Shown here piece after piece: positions 9,358-44,210 of a DNA stretch of 64,000 nt. The DNA is from a virus. Location of the stretch: positions 1-64,000 of the IMG/VR virus record IMGVR_UViG_3300005573_000006; one strand, written 5' to 3'. A program made the translations under genes and the position numbers. Each line of letters begins with the position of its first letter. Within the stretch, counting starts at the first letter, position 1. The notes under the pieces were generated by a model, which did no database searches, had not been told where the DNA came from, and saw only the letters and a list, made by a program, of their open reading frames with translations.

Positions 9358-12300
9358 TTATGCTATTGGTATTTTTGTTCTATCTGTCCATGTAGATATT
9401 GGTTTAGTACGGTTTGTAAATGTAGTAGTGGGCTTAGTTCTATTTGTAAAAGTGGTAGTTGGTTTAGTTCTGTCCGTAAAAATAGTTGTTGGTTTAGTTC
9501 TGTCCGTGTATATAGGATTTGCGGGTTTAGTTCTGTCTGTCCATATAGGACTTGGAGAAGGAGAAATAGATGGCGATACTGATGGACTTAAAGATACAGA
9601 CGGGGATACGGATGGACTTATTGATGGACTAATAGAAGCAGATGGGGATATACTTGGAGATAATGATGGACTTTTGCTTGGACTTACACTTGGACTAATA
9701 GATGGAGAAAGACTGGGGCTAATACTTGGACTTATAGATGGACTGATGCTTGGACTAACTGATGGTGAAATAGAAGGACTAAGACTTGGTGAAAGACTTA
9801 CTGACGGGGATACCGACGGAGAAAGAGAAGCGGATGGTGATACCGATGGAGAAAGACTGGGGGAAAGACTAACTGATAAAGATGGACTTAAACTAGGAGA
9901 TAAAGATACACTTGGAGATACACTTGGGGAAATACTAGGACTTAATGAAGGGCTTACTGAAACAGACGGACTAACAGAAGGACTAATAGATGGTGATAAT
10001 GACGGGGAAATGCTAGGACTAATACTCGGACTTAATGAAGCCGAAATTGAGGGACTTATCGACGGACTGAAAGAAACGGAGGGAGAAACACTGGGAGACA
10101 AAGACGGAGACAGACTTGGACTGATTGATGGACTTAGAGATGGAGAAATAGACGGTGATAATGAAGGACTTAAAGACGGAGACAGTGAAACACTAGGACT
10201 AACCGATGGACTAACTGAGGCACTTGGAGAAACTGAAGGACTCAAACTGGGTGATAAACTCGGCGAAAGTGACGGACTCAAACTTGGAGACAATGACGGA
10301 CTTAAACTAACGCTAGGCGAAACACTCGGAGAAATACTTGGGCTAATAGAAGGACTTAGACTTACCGATGGTGAAACAGACGGACTGATACTCGGTGATA
10401 CTGAAGGACTAAGACTTGGTGAAACTGATAGGGATAGACTTGGAGATAAACTGGGAGAAAGGGAAGGAGAAAGACTAGGGCTCAAGGAGGGGGATAAACT
10501 AACACTCGGTGAAATGGACGGACTGATACTTGGAGATAGCGAAGGAGAAATACTTAGCGATAAGCTTGGAGATATACTAGCACTTGGAGATATTGATGGA
10601 CTGATACTGAGAGATAATGAAGGACTTAAAGACGGCGAGATTGATAATGAAATACTTGGAGAAATGCTTGGACTTAAACTAGGACTTATTGATGGAGATA
10701 AAGATGGCGATAACGAAATCGAAGGACTGACCGATGGAGAGACTGAAGGCGAAATACTGAGCGAAATTGAAGGAGATAAACTTGGTGATAAACTAGGAGA
10801 AAGTGATACAGAAGGGCTTACGCTTGGACTTAAACTTGGAGATATGCTTGGAGATTTGGATGCTGATGGACTAACAGATGGAGATAAACTAGGGCTTAAA
10901 GAGGGACTTAACGAGGGAGATAGACTAGGCGATTTACTAACACTAGGTGATACAGAAGGAGAAACCGAAGGCGATATTGAAGGAGATATAGAAGGCGAAA
11001 GACTCGGTGATAGAGATATCGATGGAGATAAGGACGGAGAGATACTTGGTGATAGACTCGGTGACAAGGAAGGACTAAGACTTGGAGAAATGCTAGGGCT
11101 AAGTGATAGAGAAAGCGACGGCGATAAACTAGGACTAGGAGAGACACTGGGAGATATACTTGGACTAGGAGAGATAGACGGGCTAATACTAGGCGAAATC
11201 GACGGAGAAATACTAGGACTTAACGAAGGTGACGGTGAAACAGATGGACTTGGAGAACCCCACGCAATATCTGTTGCAGATCTAAAATAAATTTTGCCAT
11301 AATAATCTAAATCTGACGTAGCACCAAACATCCAAACCATCACAGAAGAAGCAGAAGGAACATTTGGTTTTTTTCCATTAATGATTGGATAATTTGCCCA
11401 TAATAAGTTAGAATTTTGCTGCTGCGTTGGTTCAAAACTGATAGTTTCTATTGATTGCCAATTGTTGTCGGTTTTTTTTCTAAGAACAATATTCCTAATC
11501 GTAGAACTATATAACCCCGTTTCCTCTCCTGAAACATAAATATTATTATCTTTATCTAAAGAGATACAAGGTCGATAAGCATTGTGAGTGCCATCACCAA
11601 AAACAACTTCGGCTGCTGACCAAGTAGTTGTTTTCTTTTGATATAAATCTGACCAAACATTATTAATAGCCCTATTATAGACTAGGTGAAGATTATCCGA
11701 ACTGTCAATAGCTAAAACGGGAACGAAAGAAGACCATGCGTTGTCTGTTACTACTTCTGGACTACTCCAACCATTCGAATATGCTATATGTACAATCTGA
11801 TAATAATTATTATTTGCTCCGCCCCAATAGGGGCCATCCCATACAATGTGTATATCATTACTACTATTTATGGCTATGCTTGGGTCAAATTGATGATATG
11901 CCTTATCTGTCAAGGGGGTAATATCTTCATAAGTTCCGTTACTATTTCTCTTTCTATAGACTATCTGACAGTAGGTAGTATTAGTACCATAACCTAATCC
12001 ATACCAAGTAATATGGAGATTATCATTACCATCAATAGCAATACTCGGGGCATACTGTTCACTTGCACTATCTGTGACCATTTCTCTGCTTCCCCAGTTG
12101 TTCCAAATACCCTTAACTAAGCAAATATTTTTTACATTATCGTTTACTGTTGGACTTTTAGTTTCCCAAACAATAAAGATATTATCAGCACTATCAACAG
12201 CTATTTTTGGACAATACTGTTGTCTAGTCGCATGAGTATATACTAACTGATTTGACCACGAACTACCACCATCAGTCGAGCGAGAGACATAAATATCTCC

Positions 12301-14853
12301 CCAAATACCATTAGTGCCATTCCATCGGTTATAGACGACATAAAGATCTCCATTAGAAGTTCTGGCAATGCTATTTCTAGCAGAAGTTTCCAGATAACAT
12401 GCATTAGAATCAACAATACTATTATCGGGTGCCACTGATGGAGATAAAGACGGAGAAATAGAAGGGCTAATGCTCGGGCTTAATGAAGGAGAAATACTAG
12501 GAGATAATGAAGAACTTATACTTGGAGAAAAAGAAGGGCTTAGTGATGGTGAAATAGATGCCGATGGGCTAATACTTGGAGAGATACTTGGAGAGATTGA
12601 TGGACTTAACGAAGAAGAAATAGATGGACTCAACGACACCGAAGGACTTACACTTGGAGAAAACGAAGGCGACAAACTAAACGATAAACTTGGAGAAAAA
12701 CTTGGGCTTAGTGAGGGTGACAACGAAGGCGAAACCGAAGGAGATAAAGAAACACTAGGGCTAACCGAAGGACTAAGAGAGGGGGAAAGACTGGGACTAA
12801 GAGATGAACTAAATGAGGGACTTATGGAGGGACTTAAACTAGGAGAGATAGACGGTGATAAACTAGGACTTAAGGATGGAGATAAACTAACGCTCGGTGA
12901 AATTGACGGACTGATACTTGGAGATAGCGAAGGAGAAATAGAAACTGACGGGCTTATACTCGGTGAAATTGAAGGAGACAAAGAAGGACTCAAAGACACT
13001 GATGGACTGATACTCGGTGAAAGTGAAGGACTTAAACTCGGACTAATGCTTGGCGATAGTGAGGGGGAAAGAGAAACCGATGGTGAGACTGATGGAGAAA
13101 TGCTTGGGCTGAGACTCGGAGAGATAGAAGGAGAAAGAGATGGAGAAAACGATGGACTTAGACTTGGAGATAAACTCGGCGATAAACTCGGACTTAGGCT
13201 GGCGCTGGGCGAAACCGATGGGCTTATACTGGGACTAACTGATGGAGAGATAGAAGGAGAAAACGAAACACCACTACTAATTGTGACTGCTACTAATATT
13301 GCTACTGCATAGACATCATTATTATTTGTCGTTGCTTTACAGTCTAAATTCTGATCAGCAGGCATTGTCATTGCCGCTGAGATACCCTGGTTATCTGGTG
13401 AAGTTACTACCGAATTAGTTACTTGAGTTCCTTCTGCTGTATCAATTTCGACGACTGAAGTAGAATTGTTAGCAGCGTCGACAGCGTTTTTATAAACATT
13501 AGTTACTCCACTCCATTCGGTAGAATCCCATTTAGTAAGTGTACTTTGTAATCCCGTACCAGTAGATAGAAGAGTATTGGCAAGAAGATACTGGGGTTCA
13601 AGTTTAGTAATAACGCCACTATACAGCGTAAAATATAAATCAAATGTAGAATATGGGTTCCACACTCCACCATTTTGCCTATAATATTGTGTACCATCGG
13701 CATATACATCCGAAGATGTTTCGTTCACTTCAAAGTAATTGGTATTATTATTTGTATCAGGCGAGCGGGTAACTTGAATATAGTATGTTGTATTAGAGTC
13801 TAATAGTACAGGATTCGTAAAAATTAAAATATAGTCAGTACCAGATGTAGTTAAATTACTTGCGGGCATGGTAGCTGAAGCAAGTGAACTTCCACCAAGA
13901 TTTGAAACTATATCAACTCTAACCGTATCAGTTGGAGAACCAACTTTTAATAATTTAAGTTTTACCGCGGTAATTGTTTTGGCCGTAGTAAGTTTAAAAG
14001 ATTGCCCTCCGGCTTCAGACGAGCTAGCATTAGAACCGCCAGTTATCCATAGATAATTTGCAGAAGTCGTATTTTGAGTTATTTCTTCCGAACCAAGCTG
14101 GTCAATAATAATCTTCGCATTATAAATAGTAGTAGCGGATTTAGAGGAAGCACTTTTGAAAGCAACTCTATAATTTCTTCCTGCCGTAAGAGTAATTGCA
14201 GAACTTCTTACTATAGTAGCACTAGTACTTGTAGTTGTTATGGTTGAACCAGTAACATCTGTCCAACCCGTAAAACCATCTCCCGTGCCGTCTGCAACTT
14301 GAAGCGAACAGGTCGCAGCAGATTTGGAGGAATCTGATTTGAAAGAGGCCTCGAAAAAAGCAGTAATAGTTCCATCCCAATTGGCAGAAGTATATTTCCA
14401 GTATTTTGGATTAGTTAGTGCAACTAAGGTCGTAGAGGTAGTAGAACATTGAGAACCTATTTCTATTTGAGTTTCGGTGCTGGAAAGAGCAGAGGTGTTT
14501 TGAATTACAATTATACGGGCAGATTTGACTGTTTGAGAGTGAGTTCCATCTGCAAGATTTTGTACAAAATAAGTAGTTCGTCCTGCTGGGGGTGTAAAAG
14601 CACTAGAACGATTAAGAGTAAAAGCTGTAGAAGTTCCCACAGAAATACTTGCATCATCTGTGGATGTCCCATTTCTACGCAGGGTTACTGTTCCTGTATT
14701 AGATGCACTGCCAGCAGTTTCAGCTTCAAAATAGTAAGTTACTGTTCCGTTATATCTAGTGGTATCTAGTTGAATACGAGCATTAGTATCTACTGAAGTT
14801 GTAGAGGTTGATACTGCGTTTAATATATTTATTTCTTGTCTTATTTGTATCAT
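9358..14853 (-). CDS. giant Ser/Pro-repeat virion fibre/adhesin with beta-sandwich domains and a BNR-type beta-propeller
   Basis: 1831 aa; two (SPSX)n tracts; SRSTDGGSSW Asp-box and repeated PSIAID..D.LHI.W blades. Confidence 0.8.
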   Translation of the reverse strand: MIQIRQEINILNAVSTSTTSVDTNARIQLDTTRYNGTVTYYFEAETAGSASNTGTVTLRRNGTSTDDASISVGTSTAFTLNRSSAFTPPAGRTTYFVQNLADGTHSQTVKSARIIVIQNTSALSSTETQIEIGSQCSTTSTTLVALTNPKYWKYTSANWDGTITAFFEASFKSDSSKSAATCSLQVADGTGDGFTGWTDVTGSTITTTSTSATIVRSSAITLTAGRNYRVAFKSASSKSATTIYNAKIIIDQLGSEEITQNTTSANYLWITGGSNASSSEAGGQSFKLTTAKTITAVKLKLLKVGSPTDTVRVDIVSNLGGSSLASATMPASNLTTSGTDYILIFTNPVLLDSNTTYYIQVTRSPDTNNNTNYFEVNETSSDVYADGTQYYRQNGGVWNPYSTFDLYFTLYSGVITKLEPQYLLANTLLSTGTGLQSTLTKWDSTEWSGVTNVYKNAVDAANNSTSVVEIDTAEGTQVTNSVVTSPDNQGISAAMTMPADQNLDCKATTNNNDVYAVAILVAVTISSGVSFSPSISPSVSPSISPSVSPSASLSPSLSPSLSPSLSPSFSPSLSPSISPSLSPSISPSVSPSVSLSPSLSPSISPSLSPSLSPSISPSVSLSPSLSPSISPSISPSVSISPSLSPSISPSISPSVSLSPSLSPSLSPSISPSLSPSISPSFSSSLSPSLSPSLSPSVSPSVSLSPSVSPSLSPSLSPSFSPSLSFSLSPSFSPSVSPSVSLSPSISSSLSPSISPSISPSISPSASISPSLSPSFSPSISSSLSPSISPSLSPSISPSISPSLSPSVAPDNSIVDSNACYLETSARNSIARTSNGDLYVVYNRWNGTNGIWGDIYVSRSTDGGSSWSNQLVYTHATRQQYCPKIAVDSADNIFIVWETKSPTVNDNVKNICLVKGIWNNWGSREMVTDSASEQYAPSIAIDGNDNLHITWYGLGYGTNTTYCQIVYRKRNSNGTYEDITPLTDKAYHQFDPSIAINSSNDIHIVWDGPYWGGANNNYYQIVHIAYSNGWSSPEVVTDNAWSSFVPVLAIDSSDNLHLVYNRAINNVWSDLYQKKTTTWSAAEVVFGDGTHNAYRPCISLDKDNNIYVSGEETGLYSSTIRNIVLRKKTDNNWQSIETISFEPTQQQNSNLLWANYPIINGKKPNVPSASSVMVWMFGATSDLDYYGKIYFRSATDIAWGSPSPSVSPSPSLSPSISPSISPSISPSISPSPSISPSVSPSPSLSPSLSLSLSPSISPSLSPSLSPSLSPSISPSLSPSISLSPSLSPSISPSISPSVSPSVSPSVSKSPSLSPSLSPSLSPSLSPSVSPSASKSPSISPSLSPSVSPSVSLSPSLSPSLSPSISLSISPSVSPSVSPSISLSPSLSPSISPSLSPSISPSISLSISPSLSPSLSLSISPSISPSASISPSLSLSISPSLSPSISPSISPSVSLSPSLSPSLSPSLSPSLSPSLSLSVSPSLSPSVSPSISPSVSPSVSLSPSISPSISPSVSPSVSLSPSLSPSLSPSLSPSLSPSLSPSVSPSASVSPSVSPSVSLSPSLSPSLSPSISPSLSPSISPSLSPSLSPSVSPSVSFSPSISPSISASLSPSISPSISPSLSPSISPSVSPSVSVSPSLSPSISPSVSPSVSLSPSLSPSLSVSLSPSLSPSVSPSASLSPSVSPSVSLSPSLSPSISPSVSPSISPSISPSISPSLSPSISPSVSPSKSPSLSPSISPSASISPSISPSVSPSVSLSPSVSPSISPSPSPIWTDRTKPANPIYTDRTKPTTIFTDRTKPTTTFTNRTKPTTTFTNRTKPISTWTDRTKIPIA
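9361..9545 (-). repeat. six ~10-aa C-terminal repeats [WYF]T[DN]RTK(P)
   Basis: WTDRTKP/YTDRTKP/FTDRTKP/FTNRTKP/FTNRTKP/WTDRTKI. Confidence 0.9.
9549..11258 (-). repeat. (Ser-Pro-Ser-X)n tract, about 570 aa
   Basis: Read directly from the translation; synonymous codons are highly varied. Confidence 0.95.
12430..13270 (-). repeat. (Ser-Pro-Ser-X)n tract, about 280 aa
   Basis: Read directly from the translation. Confidence 0.95.
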
Positions 14854-14855
14854 AT

Positions 14856-15893
14856 TTATTTTAGATGTTTAACATCCATTACTCCCCAAATCTCAACGGT
14901 CTTGTATTTATCGTCTTCTCTCATTTTAGGTTTAGCAAAGTTCCATAATTCTGAATCGGGTGTATCGTCTGCCTTACTCCAGTCAAAATCAGTCATCAGT
15001 TTACGGGAAAGAAGCGAACACCCAATACCCTGCTGAACCGTATCTCCTGTCGGCAGGGTTTTGTAGCAATGTGAAATCCAGTCAGCATCTTGCCCGTATT
15101 TAAGCAAGGTTTCAATCACGTCTTTTGGAGGAATGATATCGGCTTCTATGTTCATCCAGTGGGTATAGTTTCCTGCAAGAAAGTGCTTTTGAATTACTGC
15201 CATCGATTTGCATATTCTATTACCCATTCGTTGAGGGTCTTGGTCTTGGTTAGATAGATGTATCATTGGCACTTGGTCGCCCCACTTCTTAACATACGAA
15301 TCATCGGGGGAGTTATCTACTACTAAAATATCGTAATTCGGGTAGGTCAAGTTTTTAACATTATCTATCCATTCTTGAAAACAGTATTCTTTGACTTGGT
15401 GGGTCGGACAAGCAACAAGGATTTTTGGGACTTGTAATCTTTTTTTCCATTCCTCTATAGTTTTCAGATTAACAAAATTTTCTTCATCTATTCCGCTACC
15501 AATAGGGTCTATGTTGTGTTCCTGAATCTTCCCTACACGATTACATTCTGCCCACGCCTTGTCTATATCTGTTTCTTTCACATACTCCCACAAACCCTGC
15601 GAGTAAACTACATCGAAAAACCCATTTTTGAAAGGAATGTCAGTAACCGAACCCTTGAGAACATATCCTTTAGCACAAGAGTTTTCTAGGGCATAGTCAG
15701 AAATTTCTAATCCCCAAGCATCACAGCCTTTCTCTCTTAAAAGTTTAACTAAGTATCCACAACCTGTTCCGCAATCTAAAAAGCGAACTTTTCCATATTG
15801 TTGGATTAATCTATTAGCTAAAGATTCACAATAATCATGTCTATGGACTGTTCCCCAAATATTATCATAATATTTTTTATTTGTTTCTATCAT
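14856..15893 (-). CDS. class I SAM methyltransferase fused to GT-A glycosyltransferase
   Basis: FLDCGTGCG, GLEIS, GSVTDIPF; then ILVACPT, VVDNS, NIEADI. Confidence 0.85.
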   Translation of the reverse strand: MIETNKKYYDNIWGTVHRHDYCESLANRLIQQYGKVRFLDCGTGCGYLVKLLREKGCDAWGLEISDYALENSCAKGYVLKGSVTDIPFKNGFFDVVYSQGLWEYVKETDIDKAWAECNRVGKIQEHNIDPIGSGIDEENFVNLKTIEEWKKRLQVPKILVACPTHQVKEYCFQEWIDNVKNLTYPNYDILVVDNSPDDSYVKKWGDQVPMIHLSNQDQDPQRMGNRICKSMAVIQKHFLAGNYTHWMNIEADIIPPKDVIETLLKYGQDADWISHCYKTLPTGDTVQQGIGCSLLSRKLMTDFDWSKADDTPDSELWNFAKPKMREDDKYKTVEIWGVMDVKHLK

Positions 15894-15895
15894 AA

Positions 15896-17578
15896 TTACA
15901 TTGCCAATTGATAAACCCGACACGAAATAATAGAACTCACGTTCTTATAGTTGGATAAATTAGATATATTAGCTGTTAAAATAAAATCAGTATTAGCCGC
16001 CGAAGTATTATCTGAATCGACCGTTTCCCACGCTGATGTATTTCTATTGTAAATTTGTAAATAAACAGCAACCGACGATGGGGCAATTGTGGTTTGTCCT
16101 TCCCATTCTAAATTACAAGAATTTGCACTTCCCACATAATCCTTGAATTGATGAATAGCAATTCCATCTGTATGGGTTTGTTCAACCCTTGTATCGTCTT
16201 TAGTGGATACATCTAAATAATCCTGTGTTGAATAAGCGGTTTCTAAATCATCATCATTGGTAGGTGGTGTTGCATATTCTCCTCTTGTATAATCTGTCCA
16301 ACCAGGGCTTGGAGATGGAGAAATACTGGGACTAATAGATGGAGATAAACTAACTGAAGGACTGATCGAAGGAGAAAGAGAAGGAGATAAACTGGGAGAT
16401 AAACTCGCACTCGGGGAAACACTGGGCGAGATTGAAGGAGAGATGGAAGGAGAAGTTGAACCAGCCGCACTATGCACCACCACCAATTTAGGGTCTTGAG
16501 AAGTGCCCGTTTGGTCAGCGCAATAGCCTTCTAACCTAGTGTTGAGATAACCAGAAGCCCAGGGCGGGGTGCTATTTGCGTCATCATATTGCTGATTCTT
16601 CGCACCAAATTTTGAAATTCCAGTTTTGTTTATATTCCCCCTACCCGTAGCATTAAGGGTAAAATCATTATAACCAGATGTAGACCAATTAGCATAAGTA
16701 ATTAAATCGGATTGTAAAACACCACCCGGAGACATCCCACCAGAACTATAGTCTGCTGCAACCAGATTATCGTTTGAAGCGGGATTGGAAAGATAGATAC
16801 CAACATTGGGTGTAGCATTAAGTTGGTCTTGTTTACCCTTGCCGTAAATGGAAAGAACTGCCGAAGTAATATCATCTGTTCCAATAGTAGAAGTGTCAAA
16901 AAGATAAATTGCACGAAGGTTATATCTAAAATAATTGGTAGTGCTCCCGGCTGAAAACTGAACGGGTGTTGTCCATAATTCGGTAGGATTGGCATAAGTT
17001 GAGGTCCCTGCGTGGTTAACGATATACGACCACGCCTTCCCGGCATCACTTCCTCCATCATCATAAACCGTATATCCGACACCTCCATCAACAGGACTAT
17101 TTGCTCCAGCGGCTGGATAAAAAGTATCGGTAGTGCTCCCTATTTTACCCTTAACTATTTTTCCTCTCGGGTTATTCTTGGTTGAAACAAGAATCGTATG
17201 GGCTAATGATTGTAAAATAGCTTCTTTGGGGTCTTCTCTTAATTTTCTTTGTTTTAATTCACCAGTTTTTTCATCTGTCCACTCCCGAACAATATCGCCG
17301 TTTGGGTCATCAACTAAAATCGGGGGATTAAAAATCCTAAATCTTTCTATTTCAACCGTGCCGTCTTTACCAAAACCTACTTGTCCCTGAGAATCCCAGG
17401 CTCTAGCATAAAGCTCAATTCCGCCCCCAATCGGATTAAAAGAAATAATCTCAATATCGTAATCAGCACCAGAGAACTTAACATTGGTTCTAGGAACACT
17501 TTTAATTTTAGCTATTTCGGTAGCTTTGATATTGGCTCGCTCTCGGGCTGGTTTATTTTGAAGTAAATCTTTAATCAT
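15896..17578 (-). CDS. virion protein with an internal SPSX linker
   Basis: Thr/Ser/Gly-rich beta domains (R..YLFDTS.I..D.ITSA.LSIY; PKLVV); ~50-aa SPSX tract at about 16305-16460. Confidence 0.7.
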   Translation of the reverse strand: MIKDLLQNKPARERANIKATEIAKIKSVPRTNVKFSGADYDIEIISFNPIGGGIELYARAWDSQGQVGFGKDGTVEIERFRIFNPPILVDDPNGDIVREWTDEKTGELKQRKLREDPKEAILQSLAHTILVSTKNNPRGKIVKGKIGSTTDTFYPAAGANSPVDGGVGYTVYDDGGSDAGKAWSYIVNHAGTSTYANPTELWTTPVQFSAGSTTNYFRYNLRAIYLFDTSTIGTDDITSAVLSIYGKGKQDQLNATPNVGIYLSNPASNDNLVAADYSSGGMSPGGVLQSDLITYANWSTSGYNDFTLNATGRGNINKTGISKFGAKNQQYDDANSTPPWASGYLNTRLEGYCADQTGTSQDPKLVVVHSAAGSTSPSISPSISPSVSPSASLSPSLSPSLSPSISPSVSLSPSISPSISPSPSPGWTDYTRGEYATPPTNDDDLETAYSTQDYLDVSTKDDTRVEQTHTDGIAIHQFKDYVGSANSCNLEWEGQTTIAPSSVAVYLQIYNRNTSAWETVDSDNTSAANTDFILTANISNLSNYKNVSSIISCRVYQLAM

Positions 17579-17643
17579 TACGTATCTCTTTTTGTTCGGA
17601 AGCAAAGAATAAAAAGTTGAATGTGTGCATCTTTATATACACA

Positions 17644-17699
17644 TTATAACATAAAAATACACCAAAATCAAGGTATTTGGTGTATTTTTAATATATATT
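17644..17699 (-). promoter_or_regulatory. promoter overlapping a terminator-like palindrome
   Basis: Minus strand TTGATT, 17 nt, TGT-TATAAT, within inverted repeat AAAAATACACCAAA...TTTGGTGTATTTTT. Confidence 0.6.
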
Positions 17700-17708
17700 T
17701 ATTGTTTT

Positions 17709-18671
17709 TTATAAATTTTCTAAGTCTTCTTCTGTCCACCCATTAACTGGCCAGAATTTTTTTAATAACCAAACTAATTTTGGATTTTTCCAATATTTAT
17801 TTTTAACATTGTCTTTTGTTTTTTGCGTCTCTTTTCCACTATTAGGCCAAGGGAAACTAAAATCTCCACCCTGTGTACGAAACAGATGGGCATACCATGT
17901 ATGATGATTACATAAAACCCTTCCGCCATTAAACCATGTAGCTAAAGCCACTTCTATACCCTGATTGCCCCAGTTTCCGAGTTTTTCATCACATACCTCC
18001 CATTTCCAGTAGTTTTCTCTTGTAACCATAAAACAACTTCCTTGTAAAGACATTGTTTCGGTAAAACCAGTTTCTTTTTTGTCTTTTATATATTCTGGAC
18101 GATGTTTATAATCTTCAAAATATTGAAAGTGTGGTATTGCGTCAAAACAATAAGAAGTAGATTGTGGATTATGTTTCCCTATCCACATAATTTTTTTTGT
18201 AAATTTTGTACTATCACAAGGTTTACCAGTCCCCTTAAAATTGGTTTCTTGACATTTAATAGGAGTAGGCCCCTGATACCACTTTTTACCGCATTTTAGA
18301 CACTTCCAATCAAAAGCCCAAAGATTTCTCATTATAGGAACCATTGTTACATTGTCTCCTGTCTCTTTAAAACCTTCTATCATTTTTCGATCAAATCCTT
18401 TATCAAAAGCACAATGGGCATCAATCTTCATTACAAATTTTGCTTTGCTTAACTTGCACGCCAAATTAGTTGCCGCTCTTTGCCCTATTGGTTCTGGTAC
18501 ATAAATTACATTCACTCTTTCATGCTGAAGGATTGGCGGATCTGCCCATGCCCCGTCTAAAACGGCAATCACTTCTGTGTCTGCTTCTATGTTCTTCAGA
18601 ATATCCTCTATGGTATTCTTAAGAAATGCCTCATTGCGGCTAGGAATTAAAATTGAAAGTTGGTTTGCCAT
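17709..18671 (-). CDS. GT-A glycosyltransferase, polypeptide GalNAc-transferase (GT27)-like
   Basis: LSILIPSRNE, VLDG, KIDAHC (DxH), GSCF, D..LGNWG...E....WFNGG......AHLFR. Confidence 0.85.
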   Translation of the reverse strand: MANQLSILIPSRNEAFLKNTIEDILKNIEADTEVIAVLDGAWADPPILQHERVNVIYVPEPIGQRAATNLACKLSKAKFVMKIDAHCAFDKGFDRKMIEGFKETGDNVTMVPIMRNLWAFDWKCLKCGKKWYQGPTPIKCQETNFKGTGKPCDSTKFTKKIMWIGKHNPQSTSYCFDAIPHFQYFEDYKHRPEYIKDKKETGFTETMSLQGSCFMVTRENYWKWEVCDEKLGNWGNQGIEVALATWFNGGRVLCNHHTWYAHLFRTQGGDFSFPWPNSGKETQKTKDNVKNKYWKNPKLVWLLKKFWPVNGWTEEDLENL

Positions 18672-19413
18672 ATTTAAAAACATCTTCTATTGTTCCCCAA
18701 TAGGAGAGATTAAATGTTCTCTTTGTTCCTCTTCTATTTTTTGTAAAATTATTATTATGTCTTATGTCTATATTTGGAATTGTCGTTCTGAAATTTCTCC
18801 CTTCATAATCTTGAATATATTTCTTTAATCTTTCTCTAATATGAGCAACATTTTTTCCAACCGCCAATCGCATAGCGTGGTTATAGTCCATCGCCCCTGC
18901 CTCCCCAATTCTTCCCAACGGATATCTTGCTTTCCATACTGGGTCGCTCATCATATCTATCCTATCTTGTGTTGCTTTAATCATTATTTTTGTTCCGCAA
19001 ATTAATTGGGAATTAGCCTTTCTATTTTTAAAAAATGAAAACATACCGTTAAATTCTGGATGACTTAGACTATATACTTGTAATAACCAAACATTTTCAT
19101 TATACCAAAAGACATTTTTGTCTGGGGGAATAAAAGCAAAATGTTCGGGGGTATATAAACAATCGTGTTCAGCAATGGCAATAAATTCGGTCTTTACTCT
19201 TTTTAACGCTTCCATCATTTGAATGTTGATGGTCAAACTTGTCCTTTCCATTTCTCCTACGCAAATATTTTCGCCAAAATCTATAGGCTTATGAGAAACG
19301 GAAATTAAAGGATAATTACCGATTGATTCCAAAATGTTTTTTTTACAAAATTCATCTATCTTAGGATCAAGACAATTATCGGTCAAATAAATTATTGTTT
19401 TATTAACATCCAT
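18640..19413 (-). CDS. putative GT-A glycosyltransferase with ExD motif
   Basis: TIIYLTDN, ISVSHKP, IAEHDCLY; paralogue of 20021-20695. Confidence 0.65.
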   Translation of the reverse strand: MDVNKTIIYLTDNCLDPKIDEFCKKNILESIGNYPLISVSHKPIDFGENICVGEMERTSLTINIQMMEALKRVKTEFIAIAEHDCLYTPEHFAFIPPDKNVFWYNENVWLLQVYSLSHPEFNGMFSFFKNRKANSQLICGTKIMIKATQDRIDMMSDPVWKARYPLGRIGEAGAMDYNHAMRLAVGKNVAHIRERLKKYIQDYEGRNFRTTIPNIDIRHNNNFTKNRRGTKRTFNLSYWGTIEDVFKYGKPTFNFNS

Positions 19414-20024
19414 GAATAATATTTATCATTCTTTTTTTCTAATTCAATTGGCTTCGATCTGCCAAAAATATAAAAGTTTTTAACACCAAAAGCTCTTACA
19501 TAGGCATCAATAATTGGTTTAACTTGGCAAATAACGTTATTTGCTGTCGGATCTGTGCAGAAATAATCGTGTCCAGATATTATACCGTTTTTTTTAACTT
19601 TAAAACTCCATTCATAAATATCCTCTGCTATATATCTAAATCTATGATCACCGTCTATGTAAACAAAATCAAGGCTTTCATTGTCAAAAAATTTTAATGC
19701 ATTCATTGAAGTTTCTCTAATAAGCAAACATTGCCCATTTTTTATATAGGTATCAAGATATCTTTGAGTATGTCCGTATAGAAAATCTTGTCTTGCCTTG
19801 TTTTTTTGTGTTCTCCCCGCTCCTTCATATGGTTGCCATGGATCAATTGCATATATTTTTAATCCAACATCTAAGAATTTTTTTGTAAATTCTCCTTTAT
19901 AAACTCCGATTTCCACTCCAACTTTATAACCCATTTCTTTTAAAAATTCTGGTAATTCATCTCTTGAATTATCAGGAATTTCAAACGGACATCCTTCATA
20001 TTTTATTCCATCAATTAGTTTCAT
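19392..20024 (-). CDS. class I SAM methyltransferase (Methyltransf_24-like)
   Basis: GVEIGVYKG, AIDPW, LDFVYIDGDH, GIISGHDY. Confidence 0.9.
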   Translation of the reverse strand: MKLIDGIKYEGCPFEIPDNSRDELPEFLKEMGYKVGVEIGVYKGEFTKKFLDVGLKIYAIDPWQPYEGAGRTQKNKARQDFLYGHTQRYLDTYIKNGQCLLIRETSMNALKFFDNESLDFVYIDGDHRFRYIAEDIYEWSFKVKKNGIISGHDYFCTDPTANNVICQVKPIIDAYVRAFGVKNFYIFGRSKPIELEKKNDKYYSWMLIKQ

Positions 20025-20695
20025 TTAAATGTTCTTTTTTTTCTTACGTAATATTTGCGCAAAGTTTTACCATCTCCCCAATATTTTAATGAATAAATCG
20101 GAATACGCTCTGAATGGGTGTAATATCTAAGAGAATCTCCTGTTTTTATTTGTACGACCGGATTTTCGCTTTCCCAGTATTCAATTTTATCAAATACATC
20201 TTCTTTGCGCCATCTTTCTTTCGGAAAATTTTTCTCTTCTATACTCCACATCGGTGCTCCTTCAAATAATTTTTTTAATGTTTTTATATAAAATTCTCGT
20301 CCAACTATTTGCGCATGTGTAGCTCCCTCAGGTTTTCTAAAATAAAAATCTCTCATATCTGGCATTACATATAAATTTGAATCACGATAACAAACATCAT
20401 CTCTTGGCGGAATAAACGTAAAATAATCTGGTGGATAAAGAGTATCAGCCTCTGCAGATATTACAAATTTTGTGGTTGCCGCTTCGCATGCAATTAAAAT
20501 TTGTCTAAAACAATTAAAGCCACTAGCCCCAACATCACCTACACAAATATTTGTTCCTAGATTTATTGGTTTTTGAGAGACAGAAATTATAGGAATATCT
20601 CCGCATACTTTTAGAAGATTTTCTTTAATCCTATTTTCAAATCCCTCGTCTTCGCGGTTTGATGTGTAATATATAATACTAACTAAATTATCCAT
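20021..20695 (-). CDS. putative GT-A glycosyltransferase with ExD motif
   Basis: SIIYYTSN, ISVSQKP, SAEADTLY. Confidence 0.65.
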   Translation of the reverse strand: MDNLVSIIYYTSNREDEGFENRIKENLLKVCGDIPIISVSQKPINLGTNICVGDVGASGFNCFRQILIACEAATTKFVISAEADTLYPPDYFTFIPPRDDVCYRDSNLYVMPDMRDFYFRKPEGATHAQIVGREFYIKTLKKLFEGAPMWSIEEKNFPKERWRKEDVFDKIEYWESENPVVQIKTGDSLRYYTHSERIPIYSLKYWGDGKTLRKYYVRKKRTFK

Positions 20696-20728
20696 TTTTA
20701 AAAATAATCTTATGCAACTAATATATTT

Positions 20729-21523
20729 TTACATATTCCACTTTGGTAAAATTTCTTTCTCATAATATTCTCGCCATGTGTCTAAAGCATATTTATAACC
20801 AGCTTCACAATTGGCCGGATTTTCTTCAGTACCGTTATTATGTGTCCTTGGAAAACTTCGATGTTTATGTGCAAACCAAGTATTTTTATTAAGCATTAAC
20901 CTGCCTCCTGCTTTCCATGTTTTAAATTGCATTTCATGAGAATCTTGTATAAGTGGGCCATAATGTTCTGTATCTAGTTCACCTATTACTTCATCCCACC
21001 ATTTTCTAGGCATTACCCAACACGATCCTTGCATGGCCATGGTTTCATCAATCATTATATCTTTACGTTCTTCATCTCTTGATCTCCATCTTTGTGCTGC
21101 AAATTTCTTTCCTTCTTGAATAACTAATTTTTCGTAATCTACATAGGGTATGTCCATAAGTTCCCACTTAACAGGATCTAAATAATATCTTCTGGCAGTC
21201 ATTATCCAATTTGGTTCGCAAACATCAGTCATTGCTTTATCAAAACCCTTAGCAAACATACAATGTTCGTCGGTTCGCATAATAAATTCGCCTCTTGAAA
21301 TAGATACTCCCGCATTTATTGCCCCCCTCATTCCACGATTTCGGCCAAGATGCACATATCTTACTCTTGGGTCTTGTACTATTTCATAAGATGGCCAAAA
21401 ACCATCTAAAACATCAATTATTTCTAATTGATCACCAAGTTCAGATCCTTCTAAAAGTGAATTAATGGTTTTTACAGAATAAGGATCTTTATATGAAGGA
21501 ATTATTATTGATAATTTTATCAT
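20729..21523 (-). CDS. GT-A glycosyltransferase, GT27-like paralogue
   Basis: LSIIIPSYKD, VLDG, NRGMRGAIN, RTDEHC (DxH), GSCW, E...KTWKAGG......AHKHR. Confidence 0.85.
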   Translation of the reverse strand: MIKLSIIIPSYKDPYSVKTINSLLEGSELGDQLEIIDVLDGFWPSYEIVQDPRVRYVHLGRNRGMRGAINAGVSISRGEFIMRTDEHCMFAKGFDKAMTDVCEPNWIMTARRYYLDPVKWELMDIPYVDYEKLVIQEGKKFAAQRWRSRDEERKDIMIDETMAMQGSCWVMPRKWWDEVIGELDTEHYGPLIQDSHEMQFKTWKAGGRLMLNKNTWFAHKHRSFPRTHNNGTEENPANCEAGYKYALDTWREYYEKEILPKWNM

Positions 21524-22247
21524 TTATTTCTAATAACTTATTTGTTAATTCCGGTACATATCCTAACGATTCTGCCCAGGCGGCCCACCCATAAACATCT
21601 TTGGGCAAGCACTTGCTATTTATACCTCTTTTGTCTGGATAGACAAAAGTAAACCAAAGATTAAATCTTGGATCATCTCCATATACTATATCACGAATTG
21701 TATAATAATCAACTCCAGCTTTTTCACAGACATCGTATAACTCTTGACATTGCATTACTTTATATGCTATAGCCCTATTCTCTGAAAGTTTAATTATTTC
21801 AGCTTCATAATTTGTTACCTGTCTTATTACAATATTTGCATTGTATACAGTTTGATATAGTTCTATTATTTTTCTACGATTTTCTGGTTTTCCTCCTAAA
21901 ACTATGAAAGATCTTGTTTTCAAATCATTTAGCGGATGATTTATAGATTCTCCCAAATATTCTGGTTGAAATACAATATTTTTATTGTATGTTTTTTCTA
22001 AATAATCACAAGTTCCAGGCATTACGGTAGAACGAATTAATATTAATGGACTATTACAATTTTTTACCACATCTTCAACTATAGAACAGTCTAATGCACC
22101 GTTTTTTAATGGTGTTGGAACACAGACAATAGAAATGTCCGCAAATTCATTATTTATAAAATTTTGTAATGGATCGTGAACTAAAGCATCTGGAAACAAT
22201 TTTTTCATTGCTTTACCCACGTATCCAAAACCATAAATTTTTATCAT
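21489..22247 (-). CDS. UDP-glucose/GDP-mannose dehydrogenase family protein (lacks the C-terminal domain)
   Basis: GFGYVG, CVPTP, RSTVMPG, PEYL, AEIIKLSEN, DPR, CLPKD. Confidence 0.9.
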   Translation of the reverse strand: MIKIYGFGYVGKAMKKLFPDALVHDPLQNFINNEFADISIVCVPTPLKNGALDCSIVEDVVKNCNSPLILIRSTVMPGTCDYLEKTYNKNIVFQPEYLGESINHPLNDLKTRSFIVLGGKPENRRKIIELYQTVYNANIVIRQVTNYEAEIIKLSENRAIAYKVMQCQELYDVCEKAGVDYYTIRDIVYGDDPRFNLWFTFVYPDKRGINSKCLPKDVYGWAAWAESLGYVPELTNKLLEINDKIINNNSFI

Positions 22248-23095
22248 GGCTTTAGTAAAATATTAATATAAGGAAGAACTGATCTTAATTTTTTAGAAAT
22301 CATTTCGTCAGAAATAGCCGTTTGTGCATCATCAACATCAATATATGGGTTTGTCCCCCTGTTAGCATTATAAAAAATCTGTACCTGGTGCGCAAACTCA
22401 AAAACCAAAGATCTTGGATCAAAACCAGGTAGTTTAGAAATACACATATTTCTTTCTGGATAATAGAAGGTAGTTAACATATTATCATTTACGTCTACGG
22501 GTGTATAACGAATAAATGAATAACGATATGGCAAATACTTTTTATCAAACATTTCATCTGCCAGTTTATATGCGCTAAACTGATCTAATGGCCCTTTAAT
22601 AGATTTGTTTATTATGTCCCACGTGCATGTAAGCATTCCAGCACTATATTTTAATAGTTCATTCTGAAAATTTTTCATTTGTGGAATATTTATATTAACA
22701 ACAACAATAGGAATATTTGTTGAATAAAAATATTCTTCTGGGTCTAAACGTTTTCCGTTCCTTATTATCTGTAAATGAAGATGTGGACCCGAGGTTTGTG
22801 TACCAGAGTTTCCGCTTATTGCTATCGGTTGTCCTTCATTTACTCTTGTTTTAAATAACCATCCCTGTCTAACTAAATATTTATCTAAATGCGCCATTTC
22901 TATTTTGTCACCATTATCTCTTTTAATACCTATCCAGTTGCCACCTTTTGTTTCTTTGAATGTATAAATAGTTCCGCCACATGGTGCATAAATGGTTTCA
23001 TAATTGGCCACATAATCACAGGCAGCACCAAGTCCATCTGCAATATGTTCTTTTACTCCACGTATAAGTTGTCGTCTAAATAATGGGAATGTCAT
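22244..23095 (-). CDS. M23 peptidase endolysin
   Basis: H..........D, IYAP..G, GGNWI, AHL, SGNSG..SGPHLH. Confidence 0.85.
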   Translation of the reverse strand: MTFPLFRRQLIRGVKEHIADGLGAACDYVANYETIYAPCGGTIYTFKETKGGNWIGIKRDNGDKIEMAHLDKYLVRQGWLFKTRVNEGQPIAISGNSGTQTSGPHLHLQIIRNGKRLDPEEYFYSTNIPIVVVNINIPQMKNFQNELLKYSAGMLTCTWDIINKSIKGPLDQFSAYKLADEMFDKKYLPYRYSFIRYTPVDVNDNMLTTFYYPERNMCISKLPGFDPRSLVFEFAHQVQIFYNANRGTNPYIDVDDAQTAISDEMISKKLRSVLPYINILLKP

Positions 23096-23349
23096 TTTGT
23101 TAAAACATATATAGCTAATCCTGTAATAACAGCCGAAAATAAAGATAATATAATGGTTATTACCGGAGAAATTCCCTTAAGTTTTTCCATTTTGTTATAA
23201 ACATCATTTTTAAAATGTTCAAAACAATTACTGGTAAAAAATTTAAAATCGCTTGATAATAAATCAACTTTCTTATCAAGAGATTTATAATTTGCTTCTA
23301 AAGCTGCTAGTTTACGTACTATTTCTATTTTGTAATCTTCTTCGTTCAT
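23092..23349 (-). CDS. coiled-coil plus single-TM protein (holin/hemolysin-like)
   Basis: C-terminal TM helix; coupled to the lysin start. Confidence 0.6.
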   Translation of the reverse strand: MNEEDYKIEIVRKLAALEANYKSLDKKVDLLSSDFKFFTSNCFEHFKNDVYNKMEKLKGISPVITIILSLFSAVITGLAIYVLTK

Positions 23350-26300
23350 TTATTTAATGTTGCTTGGATTATATTGTTCAACTCCAACAACGTCTTGCAT
23401 TATATTATCGACCAAATTTCTGTATTTTTGAAAGAAGTATGGGGATTCATATCTCATCATTCCCTTCATTAATAAAGCATAAAGTTCTTTTGGAAAATCT
23501 ATTATCGGTTGATTTAGATCTAAACCAGTCCATTTTTGTATATTATTTACATAACTATCTGATTTTTTATTAGGAATAGTGGTACCAGATTCGTGTATTC
23601 TTAACATATCTGCAACTGTCGGATTGTCAATATTTTCTTTAGATAAAATACTCTGGACAATATTTCCGCCACCAGATAATTTTGTATTCAAATCTTCTGC
23701 ACTTGCCCTTATTCCCTCTTCTGGACTATTAAACTTTTGTAATACTGTTTTTGAATTTGGCTCTTTTAAATTTGTGGCATTATTATTAATTACTGGTTTT
23801 TCTGTCATCTGTTTTGGGGTATATTTCAACGTATCAATACTTTTACCATTTTCTAATATTGACGGATCTTTTAACTTCGTAGTATCGAATGCTAATTTAT
23901 TGTCTATTGTTGGTTTATTATTTACATTTATAGTATGTGAACCAAACAATGGTGATAAAAGATTTATTATTTTGGTTATTATACCACCACTTTGCTCGTC
24001 TACCCTTTTGTATTGTGGCATATCTTTTATTTTTTGTAAAGCATATGCTGGTTCTTGTTGTGCACCTTGTATAAATTGTTCCGGTGTTTGCGGTATTTCT
24101 GCAGCATAAGCGGTACCACCAAGCGGATTTAACAAAGACAAATCTAATACATCGTCCCATAACCATTTACCAAGATTATAAACACCACGGCCACCTCCAC
24201 CAGCCTGAGAGGTCATAAATTTTGCTAATAGATCTGCTGCTTTTTCTATATCACCAGCGCCAATTGCAGCACCAGCCCTTACGGCAGTTTCTATTCCTCC
24301 ACCTATCGTTCCGGCAGTTGGCCCCATTGCCCATGCAACACCTCTCCCAGATAAACCAGCGGTAATAGCATCTCCTATTATAGACATTACACCGGTGTTT
24401 AATGCCCCTTCTATATATAGGCCTAAGAAAGATTTATCTTCATCTGTTAGCCCTTCCGTTAATGCCCTTCCGGTTATAATTCTTTTAAGTACATTTTGTG
24501 CCATTCCCAATGGAGGATATATGGTTGTAATAATTGCCAAATTTCTTAAAGCCCTCGCATCTCCCCTTAATATTTCATCAAATAAAAACTTGGCTTGTCT
24601 ATATCCAAATGATTTAAACTGAAGTATTGCTGAACCCCATTCATTATTAAACGCCGTTGGTAGTTCAAGCGGATTAAATCCAAACTGAGTATAATCCATA
24701 AAATTTGAACCTATTTTTATAAGATCATCTTCGTTTAAAAATCCTCTCAATATTGCACTTGTTGTATCCGATTCTCCCAAATATTTTGCCACTTCACCAA
24801 AATTTCCTTTTTTGAATTGTCGTATAGCATAAAAAGCTCCAGTGTTTGCAGCATGGGTTCTATTGAGACTTACCTCTGTCCATTTAAATGGGCCAATAAT
24901 TTTATTTATAAATCTTCTCCACGCAGTTGCTTGTTCTTTATTTCCTTTAAATATATTAAACGGTTCTACAATAGTTCCGGCTTTGGCTCCTGTCAAAGTT
25001 GCAAATTCTTGCGCAGTATACTTTTCCATCGGTGATGAAGTAATATGTAACATACTTGCAAATCCTTTTGCAAAAGACGGTAAATCAGCAGCCAACAATG
25101 AGTTTAATGGCTGAAAAGCGTTAGCAATGAAAGATGTTGTCAATTTTGCAGCACCAAGTTGTTTAATTGTTGCTAATGCCTTATAAAGATCTCTTTCTTC
25201 AGCAGATTGTCCAACTCCTAAAATTGCATTTAATTGTCCTCTAACAAATTCTGAAGACCTAATGCCCTCACTTTCACTTTGTTGAACTGCTTTTGTAGCA
25301 ATTCTAACTTTTTCAACGATATCGTCTACATATTTTCTTAATTGAGCATCTGGATCTACCGGTCTACCAGTTGATTCATTTATTTTGGGAGCCTTCAATA
25401 AAGTTGTATATTTAGCTGCATCATCCGCGTTTTGATCTATCATTGCATAAAGCATATCTTTATAATCTTGTGGTTTACGTAATAACCACCCAGCTTCTGC
25501 AGCTTCTTGTGGAGTATCAAATGTAAATTGTCTTGCCGATGCTTGCCCCCAACGAGAATACGCTTCAATTCCAAGATTTTCTCTGTCTATTTTTGCTTCA
25601 GCAGCCAACCTTCTTTCTGATAAATCAGCTATTTTAGATATTCTAGGATCATTATTCATTACATTTTGAACCAATGCTTCATGCATTTCATCTCTAGTTC
25701 TACCGCCAACCGGAGTAATAAGTCTTGGCACTGGTTTTTCTGCCTGTCTTCTTATCTTTGTAACCGGTATTTTTTCTCCTTCTATATATATCTTGATCCC
25801 AGTTGGAGCGGGTTTAAATCCTTCTGCAGCCGTTACAACCGGTTTGCCAGGACCTTCCTTAACAACAGCAACTTCAGGAGTTGCCCCTTCACCCATTTTA
25901 CTATATTTTGGCAATTCTTTTCTTAAAGCATCTCTCAGTCCAGGCATATTTGTAAACTCAGCTATATCAAACTGTTTTTCTTTGTTATAAACAACTTTTA
26001 CATCTTTTTCAATATTAGAAATAATCTGATCTACATCTGAATATTTATATCCTAATCCGGCTAATTCTTCACGAAGATCATTAACGCTTATTTTTTCTGC
26101 CGGAAGAATAAAACCACCTTCAATTTGCGGCAATCTTGATCTATTAGTATAGATTTTTCCGAATTTGGCAACCGGCGCATCAACAATAGCAGAAGTATTA
26201 TAAGTATCTAATATTGCAGTTTTGGCAACGGGATCATCTGTTTGTTTAAGAACAACTTCTAGTGGTTCATGAGGCGCATTTGGAGAAAGTGAATTTTTAC

Positions 26301-30137: not shown

Positions 30138-30143
30138 TTTATT

Positions 30144-33100: not shown

Positions 33101-33152
33101 CTGTTTTATCTTCCTCGTAAATACTGCGTATTTTTATTTCGTCTTTATCCAT
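30144..33152 (-). CDS. tail fibre/spike protein with two FN3 domains and Gly-rich C-terminus
   Basis: GWKIDENGDVEF; W...Y.VRY..L.PN.SY; W..NTESDLASYNIYR...YYYWVKAVD; ITxxxIAAxT repeats; GGGGG motifs. Confidence 0.8.
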   Translation of the reverse strand: MDKDEIKIRSIYEEDKTVLLEKRVSLLEDQILNIKNAAPYQTTSSSIMSPNYKSGSDGWKIDENGDVEFNSGTFSGALSASTIDIGGSDSTSFHVDINGNMWLGAATFDSAPAKISSNGDATFSSINITGGVIDGTSTIAGITGTQISYVATSTADSVPTGLTYSTGGISTGSDGSQSAYVVLTWNAISSNTFDHYLVRYKKAALTYYTYIPATTNTITIEGLTPNVSYNFGVCSVNKYGTSSAFSSDIIQTTPSDSTAPATVTGVSATAGIQYVIVQWTHNTESDLASYNIYRNTTNNSETATLIGNCRTNYFIDGGRTGGQIYYYWVKAVDTSGNVSASFSTVASATPRNVVSSDTNIASQGWTQTCVFSSTDADTVSWGAGTFTTAAGTSYSISAGNTGNMTAITYIYLDIAVSTTAYQITTTATNAVGDGKVLIAVAQKSTTEATFQVFGGSGGVAITGGDIENRSITNAQIAAATITSNEIAANTIVAGNIHAGTITSNEIATNTITSDNILSIAGSKVLIDGTTYLSNWRKTGDLTKIDGGQISTNTVTLSQLNFTPVQTTNVIASINASTEGIKIDADNITISGATTFDSGYDPTTKTAKVGGTYDSASSGARVRIFPDTNTGIQVIDNAGDNVFKAMVGGTDVGDVIMGNETTGNYAKWDNSAGILEVFADNVPTLGKATFGGNGSDGALSITSGTTNIDLGGAEYFEKNYTSITISGTGALTFSNPHNNGTKIVLKSKGNVTITSSATRAIDLRNLGGKGGASSTGNGNEGLAHRDMLDTALVAGRGGVGGTSGGAVVGAGGVQFSISGLYPFKASRNYRKFVEFTSGPGGGSGSGSTNAPSGAGGRGGGALLIECNDSLNITGTIDASGGNGANGTSAWGEASGGGGGGAGGHILILYRTLTANTGTYIVTGGNGGDGGTIGSSWGGTGGGGGGGLNGKGGNGGYVGSGAAQNGSSGLTGGSGGTAGANNQAGGGGGGAAGEFLVAENNLIA

Positions 33153-37699: not shown

Positions 37700-37717
37700 T
37701 TTTAAAATATACTATAT

Positions 37718-38287: not shown

Positions 38288-38296
38288 AATATTTTA

Positions 38297-38740: not shown

Positions 38741-38744
38741 TACA

Positions 38745-39308: not shown

Positions 39309-39309
39309 T

Positions 39310-40547: not shown

Positions 40548-40548
40548 A

Positions 40549-41766: not shown

Positions 41767-41767
41767 A

Positions 41768-44209: not shown

Positions 44210-44210
44210 A

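Follow-up and report, generated by a model that had tools for sequence, protein, structure and literature searches.

We investigated a 64,000-nucleotide stretch (bases 1–64000, hereafter the window) of the viral record IMGVR_UViG_3300005573_000006, an IMG/VR genome of 91,307 bp that has direct terminal repeats and is rated complete. On its minus strand, the genes of two fibre-like proteins, P0001 and P0002, lie among those of a closely packed enzyme cassette, which includes two glycosyltransferases (GTs), P0004 and P0005, resembling the polypeptide GalNAc-transferases that initiate mucin-type glycosylation in eukaryotes (family GT27; Table 1). A preliminary description of this DNA had taken the fibre proteins to be the substrates of these enzymes, and the features it named are all present where it had placed them in the window, with the corrections given below. 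Here, we report that homologues of the enzymes are closely coupled in genomes to tracts of alternating serine, which are probably what the enzymes glycosylate.

P0001 runs from an N-terminal beta-rich region through a first serine tract, a beta-propeller with an Asp-box and a second serine tract to decapeptide repeats at its C-terminus. The N-terminal region contains a choice-of-anchor R domain (NCBIfam NF041539, aa 263–409, E = 2.5e-7), and aa 810–1199 gave weak BNR/SBBP propeller matches; the protein had no PHROG match, and the Atlas look-alikes of its N-terminal region all scored below 0.9 and carry no family. P0002 consists of an N-terminal region, a shorter serine tract and a conserved C-terminal domain (aa ~435–569), which recurs in other phage contigs at the end of tract-bearing proteins. 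The preliminary description called both of them virion proteins: their genes lie at the far end of the arm that encodes the tail, which agrees with this, but no PHROG or Pfam family supports it.

The tracts have a perfect two-residue period, (Ser-x)n, with zero register breaks: one phase is 99–100% serine, and in the other proline alternates with leucine, isoleucine or valine. P0001 contains 184 Ser-Pro-Ser (SPS) units and P0002 contains 11, close to the roughly 200 SPSX units described earlier; the X position is occupied by L (66), I (58), V (46), A (7), P (6), F (5) and K (1). The number of candidate serine sites per P0001 chain is 427. The tract scan used stop-to-stop numbering, which starts 5 aa ahead of the P0001 ATG. 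At the DNA level, TRF yielded short arrays only, of 65–82% identity, and the serine codons mix TCN and AGY. The tracts are therefore not a recent tandem repeat, and their pattern, which is far beyond chance, is maintained by selection on the protein. If the chain is extended, all serines would be placed on one face and the prolines and aliphatic residues on the other.

Two minor features accompany the tracts. The tail end of P0001 (9361–9546, minus strand) consists of six tandem decapeptides, (W/Y/F)-T-(D/N)-R-T-K-P-x-x-x, which directly follow tract 2 and have no family match. Long open reading frames (ORFs) of 620 and 280 aa lie opposite the tracts on the plus strand (9428–11290 and 12470–13312, respectively); they are almost certainly artefacts of repeat composition rather than genes.

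GT27-like glycosyltransferases

P0004 and P0005 are paralogues (hhalign of the family profiles, E = 7e-43), and both carry the DxH motifs and C-terminal blocks of the preliminary description. In P0004, KIDAHC (aa 86–91) supplies D88 and H90 of the DxH site, and the block WGNQGIE...GG...AHLFR supplies a third histidine, H266; the corresponding elements of P0005 are RTDEHC (aa 83–88; D85 and H87) and KTWKAGG...AHKHR (H219). Each of these Asp/His/His triplets is invariant in its family and aligns to Asp209, His211 and His344, which are the Mn ligands of mouse GALNT1 (PMC4202792). Seven residues of the P0004 family that align to the Gal/GalNAc-T motif are invariant (W238, G239, E244, G253, H266, F268 and R269), although WGGEN reads WGNQG, a divergence that had also been recorded before. 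P0005 retains E...GG...H..R alone of this motif, without the WG. P0004 further carries an inserted Cys zinc ribbon, in which C128, C131 and C144 are invariant, and a helical C-terminal extension, neither of which is found in P0005.

The preliminary description left it to a comparison with GT27, GT60 and generic GT2 to place the two enzymes; both are nearest to GT27 by profile search, and P0004 also by fold. In single-sequence searches of the PDB, polypeptide GalNAc-transferases ranked first for P0004, and second for P0005 behind a generic GT2. With the P0004-family profile, the top 11 PDB matches were all polypeptide GalNAc-transferases (1xhb, E = 3.2e-7), and the alignment was collinear, with DAHC on DAHC and WG..G.E...GG...H.FR on the Gal/GalNAc-T motif. 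The P0005-family profile matched GalNAc-T4 over residues 4–220 (E = 5e-11), whereas ordinary GT2 enzymes aligned to it only in the first ~110 residues, that is, the N-terminal half.

Fold comparisons were made with an AlphaFold model of P0004 (pLDDT 83), and P0005 was placed by its sequence profile. In Foldseek, ranks 1–48 for the P0004 model were all GT27 (E = 2e-14 to 4e-11). In VIA-align against 48,161 chains, mGalNAc-T1 reached Z = 24.9 (265 aa aligned, root-mean-square deviation 3.0) and Toxoplasma TgGalNAc-T3 reached Z = 23.6, compared with Z = 20.9 over 187 aa for the best ordinary GT2. When P0004 was modelled in complex with Mn and a 41-residue fragment of a tract, the score was 0.01, which weighs neither for nor against binding.

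Pfam assigns P0004 and P0005 only to the generic GT2 family (PF00535, Glycos_transf_2; 48.3 bits at aa 10–121 and 47.3 bits at aa 5–174, respectively, against a cut-off of 23.3), and the match in P0004 covers the N-terminal half only. Sub-threshold matches to PF11397 (GT60) were obtained for 12 of 22 P0004-family members and 1 of 21 P0005-family members (best E = 0.0017); P0004 itself gave none at E ≤ 1. No lectin domain was matched by Pfam in either enzyme, and a hydropathy scan, in which the highest 19-residue values were 0.68 for P0004 and 0.46 for P0005, detected no type II membrane anchor. Taken together, sequence profiles support grouping P0004 and P0005 with GT27 rather than with ordinary GT2, and the predicted fold of P0004 points the same way. 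The likeness to polypeptide GalNAc-transferases thus holds for the metal site, the profile kinship and, in P0004, the fold, but not for the lectin domain and membrane anchor. Because these two GT27 features are lacking, we call the enzymes GT27/GT60-like and do not assign them to either family.

Genomic coupling of enzymes and tracts

Tracts and enzymes adjoin each other in a wide range of loci. Among the first 28 loci (16 viral and 12 genomic), an ORF with 10 or more SPS units lay on the same strand as the GT, downstream of it in 21 loci and upstream in 2 others. A (Ser-x) run of 20 or more units occurred on the same strand in 64 of the 83 viral loci with a P0004 homologue; on the opposite strand the count was 0. 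Where at least 6 kb of downstream sequence was available, the tract lay 0.4–4.4 kb after the GT stop codon on the same strand in 35 of 39 loci. Other members of the cassette, all on the same strand, also recurred among the 83 viral loci: GT-A paralogues in 76, Methyltransf_24 in 64 and P0005 in 46.

The association extends to cellular genomes. In 401 Patescibacteria genomes, five of the six that were GT-positive had a tract on the GT contig, within ~3–8 kb, compared with 8 of the 395 that were GT-negative (Fisher p = 9e-8), most of these eight being low-identity matches. The co-occurrence of DxH GTs with alternating-serine fibre genes, which the preliminary description had proposed to examine across phage contigs, is therefore found both there and in Patescibacteria genomes, with the genes adjoining.

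We also fetched loci through the C-terminal domain of P0002, without selection on the GT. A GT27-like gene lay upstream in 11 of the 11 homologues of this domain that had a tract and enough upstream sequence. Conversely, GT27-like, GT-A and Methyltransf_24 genes were all absent within 20 kb of the 5 of 5 tract-less homologues, which are the most distantly related of the set and might form one clade (exact p ~2e-4 for the split, before allowing for relatedness). A locus search by the tract itself confirmed only six loci: one held a true SPS tract but no GT, another had fragments of the cassette, and the remaining four contained Ser/Thr-Pro repeats of other kinds.

The tract proteins beside the cassette form 28 clusters by their non-repeat parts, and no flanking M23, capsid or terminase gene was shared between loci; therefore, it is the tract itself, not a protein family or a backbone, that travels with the enzymes. 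No GT homologue fused to a serine tract was found, and so there is no fusion protein linking the two. By genomic association only, the link between enzyme and tract is strong.

Other cassette proteins and genome setting

The remaining cassette proteins are two divergent GT-A-fold proteins, two methyltransferases and a dehydrogenase-like protein. The paralogous P0247 and P0248 have no PDB match with their sequence profile; the AF2 model of P0248 (pLDDT 92.5) gave VIA Z values of 12.7–12.5 to B4GALNT1, SpsA and other GT-A enzymes, and Foldseek agrees. Four of the five GT-A domains counted in the preliminary description could thus be verified (P0004, P0005, P0247 and P0248). No assignment could be made for the fifth, in the C-terminal half of P0003: this half offers GT-A-like sequence hints only (VVDNS, EAD), aligned to the A3 profile by hhalign with E = 0.2 and had no meaningful PDB match. 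Both methyltransferase domains of that description were recovered, one in the N-terminal half of P0003 and one in P0249. The nucleotide-sugar dehydrogenase is likewise real, since the catalytic Cys motif of P0250 aligns, but it is short and lacks the C-terminal domain, to which ~115 of the 413 positions of the family model belong; in 13 of the 83 viral loci there is a homologue of equal length.

The cassette enzymes are predicted to be soluble, cytoplasmic and lipid-free, because none of them has a hydrophobic membrane segment (19-residue hydropathy, KD19, above 1.2). Pfam searches of the ten ORFs across 14856–23349 of the window found no polyprenyl-phosphate transferase, flippase or polymerase, and no GT4 (Glycos_transf_1), SecA or SecY; among the cassette genes, Pfam gave no base-hydroxymethylation genes.

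The minus-strand late arm proceeds from the terminase through a portal/adaptor-like gene, the capsid gene and the large tail proteins to an M23 peptidase, and the fibre/GT cassette forms its distal end, with co-directional genes that are packed closely or overlap. The host of the phage is probably a member of the Patescibacteria (ultra-small bacteria), because the named members of the two GT27-like families are from Patescibacteria metagenome-assembled genomes (MAGs) and a capsid homologue is labelled Dojkabacteria. A second GT/methyltransferase island adjoins the capsid gene (35449–44269, minus strand) and includes an 833-aa protein matching a beta-1,4-glycosyltransferase PHROG; no further GT27-like gene was found in it, and its target may differ from the fibres.

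Table 1. Positions in the window of the fibre genes, their serine tracts, the cassette genes and the structural genes of the same arm
Feature	Position	Strand	Remarks
P0001, fibre-like, 1831 aa	9358..14853	-	Translation; modular
Ser tract 2 of P0001, aa 1200-1769, 570 residues	9547..11256	-	Uninterrupted (Ser-x)n; one phase 100% Ser
Ser tract 1 of P0001, aa 530-807, 278 residues	12433..13266	-	Uninterrupted (Ser-x)n
P0003, class I S-adenosylmethionine (SAM) methyltransferase (aa ~45-132) fused to C-terminal half	14856..15923	-	PF08241, E 2.8e-13
P0002, fibre-like, 569 aa	15896..17605	-	TTG start at 17605, or ATG at 17578
Ser tract of P0002, aa 383-434, 52 residues	16304-16459	-	Uninterrupted (Ser-x)n
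P0004, soluble GT27/GT60-like GT-A glycosyltransferase, 324 aa	17709..18683	-	DxH, third His, WG...E motif, zinc ribbon
P0247, divergent GT-A-fold protein	18640..19413	-	ExD motif (AEHD); paralogue of P0248
P0249, Methyltransf_24 class I SAM methyltransferase	19392..20024	-	PF13578, E 2.4e-13
P0248, divergent GT-A-fold protein	20021..20695	-	Invariant E82-x-D84; model and fold search
P0005, second soluble GT27-like glycosyltransferase, 264 aa	20729..21523	-	DxH, third His; no WG, no zinc ribbon
P0250, short nucleoside diphosphate (NDP)-sugar dehydrogenase-like, 252 aa	21489..22247	-	Rossmann fold and catalytic-Cys motif kept
M23 peptidase	22244-23095	-	
Large tail proteins	23350-35103	-	
SU10-type major capsid protein	44726-45625	-	PF17236
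Terminase	49727-51079	-	Start of minus-strand arm

Proposed function and alternatives

We consider that these genes probably form a self-contained, cytoplasmic and lipid-independent cassette for protein O-glycosylation, acting on the neighbouring alternating-serine fibre tracts. The kinship of the enzymes in fold and motif, their solubility and their tight genomic coupling to the tracts are observed; from here on, we infer what the acceptor and the sugar are, in which order the enzymes act and what the stalk does. During late expression, P0004, probably with its paralogue P0005, would use a uridine diphosphate (UDP)-sugar and a metal held by Asp-x-His plus the distal His, and would join the first sugar to the hydroxyl groups of the serines in the (Ser-Pro-Ser-Leu/Ile/Val)n tracts that P0001 and P0002 carry. 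P0247 and P0248 may then lengthen the glycan, and P0249, perhaps also the methyltransferase of P0003, may cap it by methylation, while P0250 may tune the supply of sugar nucleotides. The product would be a stiff, extended and heavily glycosylated mucin-like stalk in the phage fibres, which would space the globular domains (the beta-propeller and the conserved end domain) away from the virion.

Several points weigh against this reading. The tracts are assigned as the presumed acceptor by genomic association, and P0001 and P0002 are assigned to the virion by gene position. P0005 lacks the WG of the GT27 motif, hence it may not have an initiating role. The counts of loci include related ones (for example, L122/L123, L016/L030 and L004/L005), so independent events are fewer than the raw counts. 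The preliminary description had raised the possibility that SPSX fibres occur widely in phages lacking these GTs; one tract without such a GT is that of the provirus G403 (L046; 84.5 kb, GC 52%, 96% complete), which encodes a 1812-aa fibre with three SPSX linker tracts (X = A/L/V/I) between globular domains and has no GT27-like match. Either the host supplies the glycosylation there or the linkers are bare. In addition, two GT-negative Patescibacteria genomes have tract matches of at least 54% identity. Together with G403, they indicate that tracts can exist without the cassette in cis.

The provirus speaks for an alternative in which the tracts are plain, unglycosylated, flexible or extended linkers, with the cassette glycosylating other virion parts (capsid, tail or other parts of the fibres) and the two sharing a late-operon hot spot. 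Ser/Pro-rich linkers are common in modular proteins, and the second GT/methyltransferase island beside the capsid gene implies that other targets exist. However, such linkers do not account for the way in which tract and GT come and go together in one fibre-domain family (11/11 versus 0/5), or for the presence of the GT at 0.4–4.4 kb upstream of the tract in 35 of 39 loci with very different backbones. Moreover, serine alternates perfectly over 570 residues although the codons are scrambled, which suggests that each serine is under selection; a simple linker would not require this. We regard bare linkers as unlikely, although they are the most plausible of the alternatives.

It is less probable still, and in our view a slim chance, that the cassette builds or alters a host cell-surface polysaccharide or glycolipid, as in serotype conversion or superinfection exclusion, with the tract proteins as unrelated cargo. 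Generic GT2-type matches are all that Pfam and NCBIfam give for the GTs, source databases label homologues as 'involved in cell wall biosynthesis', and a Woesebacteria copy of the cassette adjoins UDP-sugar pathway genes and a carbamoyltransferase, all of which would suit an envelope glycan. Against this, no cassette enzyme has a membrane segment, the polyprenyl-phosphate transferase, flippase and polymerase are missing from the ten ORFs searched, the full-length best matches are peptide-modifying GT27 rather than polysaccharide GT2, and the coupling to tracts is left unexplained. Phage GTs often act on DNA (PMC12619734), and hypermodification of phage DNA bases against restriction was considered as well. 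This seems very improbable for genes that are neighbours of fibre genes in the late structural arm, occur also in cellular chromosomes with tract proteins, encode enzymes resembling peptide GTs and are not accompanied in the cassette by base-hydroxymethylation genes. Glycosylation of the serine tracts thus remains our preferred reading.

Comparison with known systems

The proposed system combines elements of several known ones. Like the GT27 initiators of mucin-type glycosylation, the two enzymes have a GT-A domain with a DxH and distal-His metal site; the W-G...E...GG...H-x-F-R block is present in P0004, GT27 is the best PDB sequence match for both enzymes and the best fold match for P0004, and the likely acceptor is a dense serine array with proline nearby. 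They differ from GT27 in lacking the ricin-type lectin domain and membrane anchor, so that they would act in the cytoplasm and not in the Golgi lumen, as well as in the zinc-ribbon insert and the change of WGGEN to WGNQG in P0004, the loss of WG in P0005 and an identity of only 14–18%. The GT60 pp-alpha-GlcNAc-transferases of protists are relatives of GT27 without the lectin domain, and Skp1 Gnt1 among them is soluble and cytoplasmic (PMC8724618). The build of P0004 and P0005 (soluble, no lectin domain) is closer to GT60, and PF11397 matches are found in the P0004 family (12/22), but all of these Pfam matches are below the gathering threshold (best E = 0.0017), and Gnt1 modifies one hydroxyproline of one protein, compared with hundreds of serines here.

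In the arrangement of substrate and gene island, the closest parallel is with the serine-rich repeat glycoproteins (SRRPs) of Gram-positive bacteria (Fap1, GspB, PsrP and SraP), which have glycosylation islands dedicated to them. Their glycosylation is started by a GtfA/GtfB pair of GT4 enzymes, and they are exported by an accessory Sec system to an LPXTG anchor. In both systems, very long tracts have serine as every second residue, soluble GTs are encoded next to the gene of their known or presumed substrate (SRRP glycosylation is cytoplasmic), and the proteins are built as fibres or stalks that carry globular binding domains. Unlike in SRRPs, GT4, SecA and SecY are not found by Pfam in the ten ORFs across 14856–23349, P0001 ends in decapeptides instead of LPXTG, and the partner residues are Pro and Leu/Ile/Val instead of Ala/Val/Glu/Thr.

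Phages that glycosylate themselves are also known. According to PMC12619734, which cites Freeman et al. 2023, GTs in the structural region of the mycobacteriophages Che8, Corndog and Myrna modify the phages' own virion proteins, an arrangement shared by the present locus in both the position of the GTs and their presumed targets. The mycobacteriophage glycans sit at the C-termini of capsid and tail-tube subunits, whereas the presumed targets here are long fibre tracts; the present cassette also differs in being GT27-like and common to host chromosomes.

We found no paper in the literature that reports, for phages or for bacteria of the candidate phyla radiation (CPR), GT27-like enzymes together with alternating-serine proteins. 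If the tracts are glycosylated, bacteria and phages would have a protein O-glycosylation system based on relatives of the enzymes that initiate mucin glycosylation, and those enzymes have until now been known from eukaryotes. It would serve as a model of GT27/GT60-type glycosylation of peptides that is simple, soluble and free of the lectin domain, and mucin-type glycosylation would have a candidate root among prokaryotes. It would also hint at how phages that infect uncultured Patescibacteria make their long fibres, and at how they reach these hosts or evade them. One could go further and suppose that GT27/GT60 have their prokaryotic sister group, or even their source, in the soluble DxH enzymes that phages and Patescibacteria encode. 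Mucin chemistry, in which dense O-glycans on Ser/Pro arrays form stiff stalks, would then have first arisen as a cytoplasmic fibre-coating kit that ultra-small bacteria and their phages exchanged; we regard this as possible but doubtful.

Distribution of the enzymes

Both enzyme families are large and highly conserved: a set of 5.8 billion proteins contained 4,636 P0004-like and 2,113 P0005-like sequences, with identities mostly of 67–88% among the best matches listed. The named members of both families come from Patescibacteria MAGs, ~91% of the Atlas neighbours of P0004 are viral, and one neighbouring cluster there, made up of phage proteins, has PF11397. In IMG/VR, 264 stretches matched the P0004 family, while a tblastn search of P0004 against 50,697 cultured-phage records gave no match.

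Longer P0004 homologues carry homing endonucleases, an intein or additional GT/methyltransferase domains instead of a lectin domain. Five invaded or fused genes (P0253, P0258, P0259, P0264 and P0291) came to light, and the forms seen include intein splits (Hint + LAGLIDADG), GIY-YIG/NUMOD3 endonuclease fusions and GT-GT-Methyltransf_24 proteins. The combination of high conservation with frequent invasion by inteins and homing endonucleases is characteristic of phage genes that are important.

The preliminary description spoke of a phage system. The system is present across viral loci, but it is not specific to phages, as it also occurs in complete CPR chromosomes between housekeeping genes. 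In the complete Woesebacteria chromosome CP066693, the cassette and tract proteins (~187–247 kb; L025, L040 and L041) lie between such genes (dnaA/dnaN, groEL and tRNA synthetases), with no phage structural genes in view around them; the kit is therefore cellular as well as viral. The cassette there adjoins a carbamoyltransferase and a three-gene UDP-sugar set (Polysacc_synt_2, Epimerase_2 and Polysacc_synt_C), which looks FnlA/B/C-like. The head of the tract protein is rich in Gly, a signal peptide is absent, and tatC comes after the tract genes. The presence of a P0004-like GT in only 6 of the 401 sampled Patescibacteria genomes fits a mobile island, and phage and host seem to share one kit.

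Two further loci merit mention. In OZ246401.1 (L026), a 938-kb chromosome labelled Gammaproteobacteria, a 2,378-aa ORF just downstream of the GT contains an uninterrupted alternating-serine run of 1,972 residues; the size and content of this chromosome suggest a mislabelled Patescibacterium. An IMG/VR phage contig of 48,602 bp (L016) and a Sphingomonas MAG contig of 48,606 bp (L030) have identical match patterns, and the latter is probably a phage contig that was mis-binned into the MAG.

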